DNA of 64,000 bases from Escherichia coli (GTDB taxonomy: Bacteria > Pseudomonadota > Gammaproteobacteria > Enterobacterales > Enterobacteriaceae): the NCBI RefSeq assembly GCF_050320075.1, contig NZ_CP190018.1; one strand, 5' to 3'. Under the pieces are notes generated by a model. The model did not search any database. It had not been told where the DNA came from and worked only from the letters and a program-made list of their open reading frames with translations. Positions 28,807 through 36,187 of this stretch are shown here, in pieces. The first letter of the stretch is position 1; every line of letters begins with the position of its first letter. Both the position numbers and the translations under genes were made by a program.

Positions 28807-30128
28807 TGACCAAATTCTCAGTGGTTGTCGCAGGCGGTGGAAGCACCTTTACGCCAGGCATCGTGTTGATGCTCCTGGCGAATCAGGACCGTTTCCCGCT
28901 TCGTGCACTGAAATTTTATGATAACGATGGTGCGCGGCAGGAAGTGATTGCTGAAGCCTGTAAAGTCATCCTTAAAGAGAGAGCGCCGGACATTGCGTTT
29001 AGTTACACCACCGATCCTGAAGTGGCGTTCAGCGACGTTGATTTTGTCATGGCGCACATCCGCGTCGGCAAATACCCGATGCGCGAACTGGATGAAAAAA
29101 TCCCGCTGCGCCACGGCGTTGTTGGACAGGAAACTTGCGGACCCGGCGGAATAGCGTACGGCATGCGTTCCATTGGCGGCGTCCTGGAACTGGTGGATTA
29201 TATGGAAAAATATTCACCAAATGCCTGGATGCTCAACTACTCCAACCCGGCAGCCATTGTCGCAGAAGCCACGCGTCGTCTGCGCCCGAATGCGAAAATC
29301 CTCAACATCTGTGACATGCCAATCGGTATTGAAAGCCGGATGGCGCAAATTGTTGGGCTGCAAGATCGCAAACAGATGCGCGTGCGCTACTACGGCCTGA
29401 ACCACTTTGGCTGGTGGACATCAATTGAAGATTTGCAGGGCAACGACCTGATGCCCCAGCTGCGGCAATATGTCTCGAAGCACGGTTATGTTCCACCGCA
29501 GCAAGATACACATACTGAAGCGAGCTGGAACGACACCTATGCAAAAGCGCGGGATGTCCAGGCACTGGACCCGGATACATTGCCGAACACCTATCTGAAA
29601 TATTATCTCTTCCCGGATTATGTCGTTCAGCATTCCAACCCTGAACATACCCGCGCGAATGAGGTGATGGAGCATCGCGAGAAACAGGTTTTCGATGCTT
29701 GCCGCGCCATTACGGCGGCAGGAAATTCAGCGGCGGGCAAGCTGGAAATTGACGAACATGCGTCATACATCGTCGATCTGGCGGCGGCAATTGCCTTCAA
29801 CACTCAGGAGCGGATGTTGCTGATTGTGCCTAACAACGGGGCAATCCATAACTTTGATGATGAAGCGATGGTCGAGATCCCGTGTCTGGTCGGGCACAAC
29901 GGACCAGAACCACTGGTGGTCGGCGATATCCCGCAGTTTCAGAAAGGGTTAATGAGTCAGCAAGTGGCGGTGGAAAAACTGGTCGTGGACGCCTGGGAAC
30001 AGCGTTCATATCAGCACCTGTGGCAGGCGATTACTTTGTCGAAAACGGTACCGAGCGCCGCGGTCGCCAAAGCTATTCTGGATGATTTGCTGGAGGCCAA
30101 CAAAGCGTACTGGCCAGAGTTACGTTAA
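28806..30128 (+). CDS. glvA: 6-phospho-alpha-glucosidase (GH4 family, GlvA-like)
   Basis: 440 aa [24 protein letters not shown] (NAD-binding Rossmann, GH4 hallmarks); overlaps the glvC stop. Confidence 0.85.
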
Positions 30129-31018
30129 TTGTGTGGACTGGCATCCGTTGGGTGCTGGTCCGTATTCTTTAGCACGGCTGACGGCGCATAACCAAATTTA
30201 TGTTTAAAGGCTTTGCTGAAATGAAAGGAGTCGAAGAAGTTGAGCGTATCAGCGACTTCGCCAACCGAGTTCCCTTGTTGCTTTAATAGCGATAGCGCCA
30301 GATCCAGACGTGCATCGAGGTAATATTCTTTCGGCGTCTTGCCGGTATAGCGTAAAAACAGACGACGCAACCAGGCTTCGCTACAGGGGATCGTGGCAGC
30401 CATATCAGCTACGCTCCAGCGTTGTTGCAGACTGGCATGTAAAGTGGCAATTAGTTTTTCAATTTGCCGCCGTTGTGGATCTTTTTTACCGTCTGAGTAC
30501 ATAAGACAAATCCACTGATAAATAATTTTCGTCAGAAAAGCGACTGCCAGATTATTTTTTATTGCTTCTGGTGAAGTAATTAACTCAGCAACTTCGGTGA
30601 GTTCCTGATTATAAATTTCGCCATTATAAATAACGCTTTGCTGACCGACGGGAATATCCATCATACTGGTGGGGGTAAATTCCATCCAGTACTGTTCCCA
30701 GACTAAACCTTCACAGTGATAAGAGTGAATATCCATTGGCTTTAAAAATATAATACAGTTGCCATGCAGAGTTATTTGTTCACCATTCTTTAAAAGAATT
30801 TTCCCACATCCTTGTACGGTATACACCGCAACCCATGAGTTGGCGATAAGCGGTTTCTTCTTGTCCCGCGGCCAGATCACCCGGTAATGCTCGTCGGCGT
30901 AGGTATGCCAGAGCGAGATCAGAGAAATTCCGCTGGAGATCACATTTTCGTTAATCAATAAGGGAATATTGTACGGAGTTTCGTTTTTTACATCTGAACT
31001 TTGCAATTTTCCATTCAT
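30125..31018 (-). CDS. yidL: AraC-family transcriptional regulator YidL
   Basis: Start at [13 protein letters not shown]-terminal AraC HTH. Confidence 0.8.
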
Positions 31019-31184
31019 TTTAATATCCCTCCGGCGAATTATGCTCACAACCTGAACTTAACAGAAAACAATCCGTTCAGGGATACGACGTTTGTATTTT
31101 AAGAATCTGACTGCCTGACCCGACGCATTTTACCTCTCCCTATATTCATGCGTCCGGGACATAAACATAAATAAGGGCTATGAG

Positions 31185-34993: not shown

Positions 34994-35341
34994 ATGAAAA
35001 TTTCCCGCCTCGGAGAAGCGCCCGATTACCGCTTCTCGCTGGCTAATGAGCGTACTTTTCTGGCGTGGATCCGTACCGCACTAGGATTTCTGGCTGCGGG
35101 GGTTGGGCTTGACCAACTTGCGCCAGATTTCGCCACGCCCGTCATTCGCGAACTGCTGGCGTTGTTGTTGTGTCTGTTTTCCGGCGGGTTAGCGATGTAT
35201 GGCTACTTGCGCTGGTTACGCAATGAAAAAGCGATGCGTCTGAAAGAGGACCTGCCTTACACCAACAGCTTATTAATCATCAGTTTAATATTGATGATCG
35301 TGGCGGTGATCGTCATGGGACTGGTGTTGTATGCCGGATAG
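34994..35341 (+). CDS. yidH: Inner membrane protein YidH (DUF202)
   Basis: 115 aa, two TMS. Confidence 0.85.
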   Translation: MKISRLGEAPDYRFSLANERTFLAWIRTALGFLAAGVGLDQLAPDFATPVIRELLALLLCLFSGGLAMYGYLRWLRNEKAMRLKEDLPYTNSLLIISLILMIVAVIVMGLVLYAG

Positions 35342-35693
35342 CCGCAAAGCCAGACGCATTGCCGACCCAGGGCTGCAGCCGGAGCGCACATCACTGGCGT
35401 GGTTTCGTACCATGCTGGGCTACGGCGCGTTGATGGCGTTGGCTATCAAACACAACTGGCACCAGGCGGGCATGTTATTCTGGATTTCGATTGGCATCCT
35501 CGCCATCGTGGCGCTGATCCTCTGGCACTACACTCGTAATCGCAATTTAATGGATGTCACGAATAGCGATTTTTCCCAATTTCACGTAGTCCGTGACAAA
35601 TTTTTGATCTCCCTCGCGGTGTTATCTCTCGCAATACTGTTTGCTGTAACGCATATACATCAACTTATCGTATTTATTGAGAGAGTCGCATGA
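35331..35693 (+). CDS. yidG: Inner membrane protein YidG (DUF202)
   Basis: 120 aa; overlaps yidH 3' end. Confidence 0.85.
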   Translation: MPDSRKARRIADPGLQPERTSLAWFRTMLGYGALMALAIKHNWHQAGMLFWISIGILAIVALILWHYTRNRNLMDVTNSDFSQFHVVRDKFLISLAVLSLAILFAVTHIHQLIVFIERVA

Positions 35694-36187
35694 CAGGAAG
35701 TCAGGTCATTGATGCTGAAGAGGACAGGCATAAACTGGTTGTAGAGTATAAGGATGCTCTGCAACCTGCCGATTTTTATCACAATTTCAAACAGCGGGGC
35801 ATCCGCTCCGTACAGCTCATTCCCCATCTTGAATTTGATGACCGGGGCGATCTGACGGCCGCTTCGGTGACAGCAGAGCTGTGGGGGAAATTTTTAATTG
35901 CCCTGTTTGAGTGTTGGGTGCGGGCAGATATCAGTCGTATCTCGATTGAGCTTTTTGACGCCACATTACAAAAATGGTGTGGCAGCGAAAACCCGCACTC
36001 GCGCCGTGGCTGCCAGGCGTGCGACTGGCATCGGCTGTGCCCGCACGCTCGGGAGGAGACGCCAGACAGCGTGCTATGTGCGGGCTATCAGGCGTTTTAT
36101 TCTTACTCCGCACCGCATATGCGGGTGATGCGTGATCTGATAAAGCAGCATCGTTCTCCCATGGAGCTGATGACGATGCTGCGGTGA
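35690..36187 (+). CDS. yidF: Cys-rich protein YidF (putative sulfatase-maturation accessory protein)
   Basis: 165 aa; ATGA overlap with yidG; Cys cluster CQACDWHRLCPH. Confidence 0.8.
   Translation: MTGSQVIDAEEDRHKLVVEYKDALQPADFYHNFKQRGIRSVQLIPHLEFDDRGDLTAASVTAELWGKFLIALFECWVRADISRISIELFDATLQKWCGSENPHSRRGCQACDWHRLCPHAREETPDSVLCAGYQAFYSYSAPHMRVMRDLIKQHRSPMELMTMLR

Follow-up and report, generated by a model that had tools for sequence, protein, structure and literature searches.

A probable uptake and desulfation module at the yidLKJIHGF locus of Escherichia coli, with a truncated YidF under purifying selection

Sulfatase genes that adjoin the gene of a radical-SAM/SPASM maturase (SAM, S-adenosylmethionine) are represented by aslA-aslB and ydeN-ydeM in E. 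coli, by atsA-atsB in Klebsiella and by the sulfatase/anSMEcpe pair of Clostridium perfringens (anSME, anaerobic sulfatase-maturing enzyme). Among strains of Pasteurella multocida, yidK and yeaD co-vary with a sulfatase-like gene and a chuR/AslB-type maturase gene (PMC10986470). The locus considered here, yidLKJIHGF, is a long-annotated cluster of a known kind (a sulfatase with a maturase, a transporter and a regulator) and occupies positions 30125-36187 of a 64,000-nucleotide stretch of E. coli DNA (the window; contig NZ_CP190018.1 of assembly GCF_050320075.1), where the open reading frame (ORF) list and the RefSeq annotation agree on seven contiguous genes, as an earlier note on this DNA had it. 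Like the described maturases, full-length orthologs of its YidF carry CX3CX2C and the seven-Cys SPASM pattern. The yid module departs from the described pairs in that its sulfatase lacks a predicted signal peptide, the sulfatase gene is coupled to that of an SGLT-like importer, two DUF202 genes stand between sulfatase and maturase (the asl, yde and ats loci are not known to have DUF202 genes), and the maturase gene of the E. coli module is truncated. From gene content, synteny, deletion anatomy and selection, we put at roughly 70% the probability that the E. coli locus is a conserved uptake and desulfation module whose truncated YidF is not a maturase yet is under selection, most likely for a non-catalytic role. 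Relative to the literature searched, the reconstruction of the ancestral operon, the view of YidF as a selected and repeatedly evolved minimal remnant, and the constancy of the DUF202 pair appear to be new.

A scan for YidJ with one genome per species, annotated by an ORF/blastp script, gave 56 usable loci outside the window, with YidJ at 66-98% identity. The dominant architecture is yidL(-) yidK-yidJ-yidH-yidG-yidF(+), and this order, or a variant of it with full-length F, is present at 39 of the 56 loci; its recurrence in dozens of Enterobacterales species bears out the dedicated uptake and desulfation module that the earlier note had proposed. The full-length F proteins of these 39 loci comprise 362-444 aa (~370 aa being typical), and both CX3CX2C (e.g. 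MTGCQVMAKPASSRCNLDCRYCFY) and CX2CX5CX3C are intact in 38 of them, the 39th (L006) being broken only by an 'nn' assembly ambiguity. Because the radical-SAM CX3CX2C and SPASM motifs are intact, full-length YidF is a putative dedicated anaerobic sulfatase maturase. The remaining loci carry either a short in-frame F of 165-176 aa (nine loci: three Escherichia, S. enterica subsp. arizonae, two Klebsiella, two Superficieibacter and one metagenome-assembled genome), a frameshifted F (two loci), or no F or a 30-codon stub (six loci). In most Enterobacteriaceae the module lies between ibpB-yidE(-yidP-glv) and (dsdAX-)emrD-ilvB, and since the chromosomal site is the same, full-length F is taken as ancestral at the E. 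coli locus. One such locus, ibpB-yidE-yidP-glv-yidLKJHGF-emrD-ilvB of Enterobacteriaceae type, was encountered in a record titled 'Chryseobacterium sp. 18061' (L023, CACSKA010000004.1); it is near-identical to that of 'Citrobacter sp. 18056' (L025), and the assembly is probably mislabelled or contaminated. Within E. coli, the 6,063-bp region is matched in 5421 of 5426 complete genomes at 95-100% identity and is always chromosomal; in 321 of the 5421 matching genomes, less than 80% of the 6-kb region is covered.

The truncation of YidF is evident from its comparison with described maturases. The protein is Cys-rich, in line with the earlier description, with six Cys in 165 aa (positions 75, 97, 108, 111, 117 and 130), and gives no Pfam match. 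Its match to TIGR03942 (E=7.8e-21) covers model positions ~160-363 only and reaches 74.5 bits, below the cutoff of 349.45, and that to NF010308 reaches 69.9 bits against a cutoff of 484. In a sequence search of the PDB, YidF matches only anSMEcpe (E=3e-4; PDB 4K36-4K39), residues 175-247 of the enzyme aligning with YidF 27-96 and residues 315-370 with YidF 106-152; the portions of anSMEcpe without equivalents in YidF are ~1-160, which hold the radical-SAM cluster and the SAM site, and ~248-314, which hold C255, C261 and C276. The AlphaFold2 model, for which 44 sequences were aligned, has a confidence (predicted local distance difference test, pLDDT) of 78, with residues 10-100 and 126-152 confident and the Cys loop 101-125 below 50, and a fold search of the PDB with this model matches only the eight anSMEcpe chains there (E~1e-5). 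The corresponding template modelling (TM) scores are 0.58-0.63 by YidF length and 0.28-0.30 by enzyme length, ~30% of the enzyme being covered.

Alignment to the full-length orthologs reveals that YidF keeps the ancestral start (MTGS versus MTGC) and the ATGA overlap with yidG, and that three segments have been removed: ~148 residues of the radical-SAM core, after which the sequence resumes at the equivalent of '...FNLLVVVN'; ~59 residues with the C-x5-C-x14-C that supplies cysteines of auxiliary cluster I (Aux I); and four residues that convert RF[CHGD]CP to RLCP. The ligands in anSMEcpe are C255, C261, C276 and C330 for Aux I and C317, C320, C326 and C348 for Aux II (PMC5715301). The first three Aux I ligands fall within the ~59-residue deletion and the RF[CHGD]CP deletion has removed or merged the fourth, whereas C108, C111, C117 and C130 of YidF align with the four Aux II ligands C317, C320, C326 and C348, with C108, C111 and C130 invariant in 44 YidF sequences. 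A table of conserved Cys columns gives the same picture for the short forms as a class: none of them, E. coli YidF included, has CX3CX2C, the three radical-SAM and three Aux I-specific cysteines are gone, and the CX2CX5C...C set is retained. By its sequence, YidF thus retains at most one predicted cluster site, the SAM-cleavage site being gone, and because the radical-SAM core and motif are absent it would be unable to act as a maturase through the mechanism known. The maturase-like character that the earlier note ascribed to YidF therefore survives as homology to anSME (TIGR03942, anSMEcpe and fold) and finds no support as function, the radical-SAM core and Aux I cysteines that a plausible maturase would have being missing. 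Schirmer & Kolter reportedly already noted yidF as a partial homolog of modifying enzymes.

Selection on the cluster was assessed as the ratio of non-synonymous to synonymous substitution rates (dN/dS, Nei-Gojobori method) for pairs of the window with three other Escherichia species. For yidF the ratio is 0.10-0.11 in the three pairs, and neutrality is rejected at p=7e-17 to 8e-22 (binomial test of non-synonymous versus synonymous changes). The C-terminal 36 residues (130-165) are at 0.02-0.05, with dS ~0.72; an overlapping DNA element as the source of this conservation was considered and rejected on that dS and on the varying downstream gene, which is emrD in E. coli and dsdA in Citrobacter. 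Of 5426 E. coli genomes, 5420 carry yidF at full length with >=95% identity. Elsewhere, short F gives 0.057 in Klebsiella and 0.19 in Superficieibacter, and intact F gives 0.06-0.11 between sister species of Citrobacter, Kluyvera, Atlantibacter and Trabulsiella. Among the neighbours, yidK is at 0.02-0.05, yidJ at 0.045-0.049 and yidG at 0.05-0.13, and YidH differs by 0-1 amino acids between Escherichia species although dS reaches 0.39-0.64 (dN/dS of yidH, 0-0.006). As both the yidF remnant and yidHG are under purifying selection, a retained non-catalytic role is most likely. Between Escherichia species dS itself climbs along the cluster, from 0.15-0.46 at yidK/yidJ through 0.36-0.64 at yidH/yidG to 0.81-0.91 at yidF, and residues 97-129 of YidF are hypervariable (dN 0.26-0.29); the gradient and the hypervariable segment may reflect either allelic lineages of long standing or the edge of a recombined segment.

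The reduction of F has occurred repeatedly. Homolog searches place short YidF (162-178 aa), with 38-55% identity, in genera that include Citrobacter, Leclercia, Superficieibacter and Klebsiella, and also find intermediate forms of 195-363 aa in which the radical-SAM motifs are corrupted. In a neighbour-joining tree of 156 shared columns, Leclercia and locus L007 group with a full-length sequence, apart from the short forms of Escherichia, Salmonella, Klebsiella and Superficieibacter, and the Leclercia lineage has different breakpoints as well; the tree position and the breakpoints together imply at least two truncation events. A separate observation concerns a 236-aa predicted protein (P0114) with ferredoxin-type Pfam domains, which shares 96% identity with YidF over residues 19-63 only; it lies on a 1-kb metagenome contig that is likely a chimeric assembly.

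The two genes that precede yidF both encode members of PF02656 (YidH, E=4.2e-19; YidG, E=7.1e-12). YidH aligns over its full length, in a weak match (E=2e-3), to yeast Vtc1, a three-helix subunit of the polyphosphate channel, and YidG alone has no meaningful sequence match in the PDB. The transmembrane domains of VTC (DUF202) translocate an anionic polymer (PMC9911596). By analogy we infer a possible anion-channel role for YidHG, with the differences that YidHG have no catalytic or SPX partner as in Vtc1/VTC, and that they are bacterial proteins of 115-120 aa from an overlapping gene pair, unlike the eukaryotic vacuolar VTC. The association of the pair with a maturase extends to Marinomonas sp. 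KMM3893 (L045:690-16914), where the order anSME-DUF202-DUF202 indicates that the DUF202 pair tracks the maturase through a rearrangement. Within the literature searched, no paper linking DUF202 with sulfatase maturation was found, the search returning only irrelevant DUF2023/DUF2027 papers; the pair appears to be a conserved companion of the maturase that had gone unremarked, and it gives a bacterial setting to a domain known elsewhere from the polyphosphate channel of eukaryotes. The Marinomonas anSME has a C-terminal SEC-C motif (PF02810), and its island further contains two sulfatase/SSS pairs, a third SSS symporter, a GH36 alpha-galactosidase and LysR, AraC and LacI regulators, a content that hints at galactoside sulfates as possible substrates.

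Other readings of YidF and its neighbours were weighed against these results. That E. coli YidF is still a working YidJ maturase, i.e. a small Cys-rich formylglycine-making enzyme, would be in keeping with its anSME homology, its place in a sulfatase module, the purifying selection and the four cluster-type cysteines that it keeps, but every anSME reaction known begins when SAM is reductively cleaved at the radical-SAM cluster, and YidF is missing CX3CX2C, the SAM-binding barrel's N-terminal ~150 residues and the Aux I cysteines; with 74.5 bits against a family cutoff of 349 and a model that covers ~30% of the anSMEcpe fold, we consider this extremely improbable. The graded series of degenerate forms at the same locus (363, 311, 310, 249, 220, 213 and 165-176 aa), the complete loss in several lineages, the hypervariable residues 97-129, the low model confidence of the Cys loop and the standing of YidF as the fastest-evolving protein of the cluster would instead suit a functionless relic, a pseudogene fragment slowly decaying in frame. 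Such a relic is difficult to reconcile with dN/dS of 0.06-0.11, with rejection of neutrality at p<1e-15 and with 0.02-0.05 in the C-terminal 36 residues; 5420 of 5426 E. coli genomes preserve its frame, its length and the overlap of its start with yidG, as do other genera at 38-55% identity, and at least two lineages reached the same minimal architecture. We regard a relic as unlikely.

The association of yidHGF with the sulfatase could also be incidental, the three genes forming an independent unit unrelated to sulfate-ester metabolism, with YidH/YidG acting, for example, as a small-solute exporter. Citrobacter, Leclercia and two further relatives do carry the triad without yidLKJ, directly after yidE or glv and with sizes and overlaps unchanged; yidI separates the two blocks in E. 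coli; and a homolog search with YidH yields 7669 matches, widespread in Enterobacteriaceae (all >=83% identity among the matches listed, with no distant contexts). YidH was also a candidate in a screen for a D-alanine exporter, but transport assays did not confirm it (PMC10299036). Against independence, at 47 of the 56 other YidJ loci the sulfatase gene is followed directly by both H and G and these by the maturase gene, on the same strand and with short gaps, the Marinomonas order is kept beside sulfatases, and the loci that lack yidLKJ carry a degenerate F at the same chromosomal site, for which reason they are read as secondary losses of sulfatase and symporter. (A second paralogous copy as the source of the yidHGF-only Citrobacter loci was rejected, both types of locus occupying the same ibpB-yidE...emrD position in different species.) On balance an independent unit is quite improbable. 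A more specific form of the non-catalytic role, in which YidF would be a small SPASM/Aux II-only protein, evolved at least twice, that acts as an Fe-S or adapter subunit of a YidHG complex handling released sulfate or feeding electrons, and that conceivably aids a formylglycine formation independent of AslB/YdeM, is speculative and rather doubtful.

Several observations weigh against our preferred reading of a conserved module with a selected, non-catalytic YidF. The dN/dS of F is looser (0.16-0.27) in lineages without yidLKJ, and that of yidF may be flattered by its unusually high dS of 0.81-0.91; at the protein level, short YidF evolves fast, with 83% identity between Escherichia species versus 96-99% for J and K. 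F is deleted in J-bearing Phytobacter and Tenebrionibacter and is a stub in Cedecea, and such outright deletions imply that neither J nor HG strictly needs F. The neighbour-joining tree carries no support values and its large clade of short forms may be a long-branch artefact. The descent of C117 is ambiguous, since the four-residue deletion allows it to be the equivalent of either residue 326 or residue 330, and the Cys-rich loop is modelled at pLDDT <50, so that cluster binding is a prediction at most.

The family assignments of the symporter and the sulfatase hold. YidK matches PF00474 (E=2.7e-50) and the equivalog NF007790 at 856.5 bits against a cutoff of 401, in agreement with its earlier placement in the SSS family. 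Its closest solved relatives are the sugar transporters vSGLT (E=1.3e-53 over ~475 residues) and human SGLT1/2 (E~1e-41 to 1e-46); this is a likeness of overall sequence, and a sulfated substrate would require an anion-accommodating site, for which vSGLT and SGLT1/2 are not known. YidJ matches PF00884 (E=2.7e-71) and bears out its description as a Cys-type sulfatase, here of type I (S1), through the signature PVCTPARAGLFTG, in which (C/S)-x-P-x-R is followed by LFTG, and a second signature, GYHTCYIGKWH, at residues 92-102. Cys52, within the first signature, is the residue expected to become formylglycine; the 13-mer is identical in 53 of 57 orthologs and the Cys is kept in all 57 (the 56 other loci together with L001, a copy of the present region). 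With a sulfatase domain that begins at residue 4, against an alignment start at residue ~25 in secreted homologs, YidJ appears to lack a signal peptide, and action in the cytoplasm is expected, presumably on solute imported by YidK.

YidJ falls below every functionally defined NCBIfam cutoff (TIGR03417 choline sulfatase, 196.7 versus 433 bits; NF010322 arylsulfatase, 210 versus 481 bits). It shares the S1 fold and Cys-type signature with the cytoplasmic choline-O-sulfatase BetC, S1_30, exo-2S-iota-carrageenan sulfatase and GlcNAc-6-sulfatase, its best PDB matches being 9ihk (S1_30A, E=2e-44), 7oz8 (E=2e-41) and 6pt4 (E=3e-41) at ~30% identity, and YidJ orthologs form a tight group of their own (66-98% identity across orders) that is distant from BetC and from the carbohydrate exo-sulfatases. 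Both S1_30 and 6pt4, the exo-2S-iota-carrageenan sulfatase, remove a 2-O-sulfate from a galactose-type residue that forms the non-reducing terminus; a substrate assignment from S1_30-type relatives was nevertheless rejected, ~30% identity providing a weak hint only. The literature agrees with the earlier note that the substrate is not defined: a paper of 2025, citing Schirmer & Kolter 1998, still terms YidJ a 'putative sulfatase/phosphatase' (PMC12585060), and no experimental report of YidJ formylglycine or of sulfate-ester hydrolysis by YidJ was found in the literature searched.

YidL has the composition of an AraC/XylS regulator, the family in which it had been placed, with a C-terminal double helix-turn-helix (PF00165, E=5e-18; PF12833, E=2e-17) and an N-terminal ligand domain (PF02311, E=6e-7), and its gene is divergent from yidK at 52 of the 56 other YidJ loci. 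The yidL promoter is repressed by H-NS and activated by BglJ-RcsB, and both the transcription start and the BglJ-RcsB site have been mapped experimentally; the published start falls on the annotated upstream GTG (PMC3950696), which supports the ATG start that yields the 297-aa protein. Laboratory E. coli probably does not express the module, and H-NS silencing would account for the absence of module phenotypes. In some E. coli strains (e.g. NZ_CP115821.1), the region carries an inserted IS1A element, and the annotation splits the AraC regulator in two.

From the evidence at hand, the direction of transport, hydrolysis in the cytoplasm, maturation of YidJ and the roles of YidHG and short YidF may be proposed as follows. 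YidL would sense the substrate and control the divergent operon, which is H-NS-silenced in E. coli; YidK would import a small sulfated solute with Na+, probably a sugar or glycoside sulfate; and YidJ would hydrolyse the sulfate ester in the cytoplasm, freeing sulfate. In the ancestral form, full-length YidF, produced from the same operon after yidJ-yidH-yidG, would convert Cys52 of YidJ into formylglycine. In Escherichia this arrangement is proposed to have been remodelled by insertion of yidI between yidJ and yidH and by the in-frame deletions in yidF (~148, ~59 and 4 residues). As the 165-aa YidF would be unable to cleave SAM, YidJ would have to be activated by another system, which may be AslB, YdeM or a further E. 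coli pathway. YidH and YidG may form a small hetero-oligomeric membrane complex that conducts an anion such as the released sulfate, by analogy with VTC, or that anchors or serves the maturase, and short YidF may be a single-[4Fe-4S] or adapter subunit acting with this membrane pair; the roles of the YidHG complex and of short YidF are the weakest steps of the proposal.

The activation of YidJ touches on a wider question. According to one report, Cys-type sulfatases are the only kind that E. coli modifies, by a machinery described as 'elusive' with citation of the work by Benjdia et al. 2007 with mutants of aslB and ydeM (PMC6189696); the activation of Cys-type sulfatases in E. coli has been an open question since 2007, and the module bears on it. 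Full-length YidF from Citrobacter, Kluyvera or Atlantibacter is a natural maturase to pair with YidJ for obtaining active enzyme and for substrate screens, and yidF is a clean natural case of a radical-SAM enzyme that has been stripped of its catalytic domain with the remainder under selection.

The layout of the region (Table 1) bears out the partial translational coupling attributed to the cluster. The overlaps are real, comprising 4 nt (ATGA) for yidK/yidJ, 11 nt for yidH/yidG and 4 nt for yidG/yidF, but they define two separate blocks, yidKJ and yidHGF, and by orientation the E. coli locus consists of four units, yidL (-), yidKJ (+), yidI (-) and yidHGF (+), and not of one operon. The earlier note had recognised neither this division into more than one transcription unit, nor yidHG as integral parts of the module, nor yidI as a lineage-restricted insertion. 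YidI has no Pfam or NCBIfam match, and among the annotated loci its gene is restricted to Escherichia, S. arizonae, C. youngae and Phytobacter; the yidJ-to-yidH gap is 10-240 nt without yidI and ~600 nt with it, and the insertion splits the ancestral operon. The dN/dS of yidI is 0.11-0.31, looser than that of the neighbouring genes. A consensus scan of 29900-36500 gave 2 promoter-like sites versus 6.8 in shuffles and 9 terminators versus 7.8, neither above chance and both uninformative on co-transcription.

Table 1. Features of the yidLKJIHGF locus, in window coordinates.
Feature	Position	Strand	Description
yidL	30125-31018	-	AraC-family regulator, 297 aa from ATG; ORF reaches GTG at 31048
yidL-yidK divergent intergenic region	31019-31184		presumed, from its position, to hold both promoters and the YidL operator
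yidK	31185-32900	+	SSS-family Na+/solute symporter, SGLT-like
yidJ	32897-34390	+	Cys-type (formylglycine-dependent) sulfatase, predicted cytoplasmic; start overlaps yidK stop
sulfatase signature PVCTPARAGLFTG in yidJ	33044-33082	+	residues 50-62; regular-expression match
yidI	34437-34886	-	149-aa predicted membrane protein between yidJ and yidH
yidH	34994-35341	+	DUF202 three-helix membrane protein, Vtc1-like
yidG	35331-35693	+	second DUF202 membrane protein
yidF	35690-36187	+	165-aa in-frame deletion derivative of the module's putative anaerobic sulfatase-maturing enzyme
YidF residues 108-130, CX2CX5C...X12C	36011-36079	+	sole remaining Fe-S-type cysteine set

At the downstream end, the yidF stop is separated from the stop of the convergent emrD by 7 bp (36188-36194), which leaves no space for separate terminators. 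Directly upstream of yidL (26983-30128) lie intact genes for a phosphotransferase system EIICB protein and a 6-phospho-alpha-glucosidase (glv-like), adjoining the GntR regulator gene yidP; the presence or absence of this block across genera is independent of the sulfatase module.

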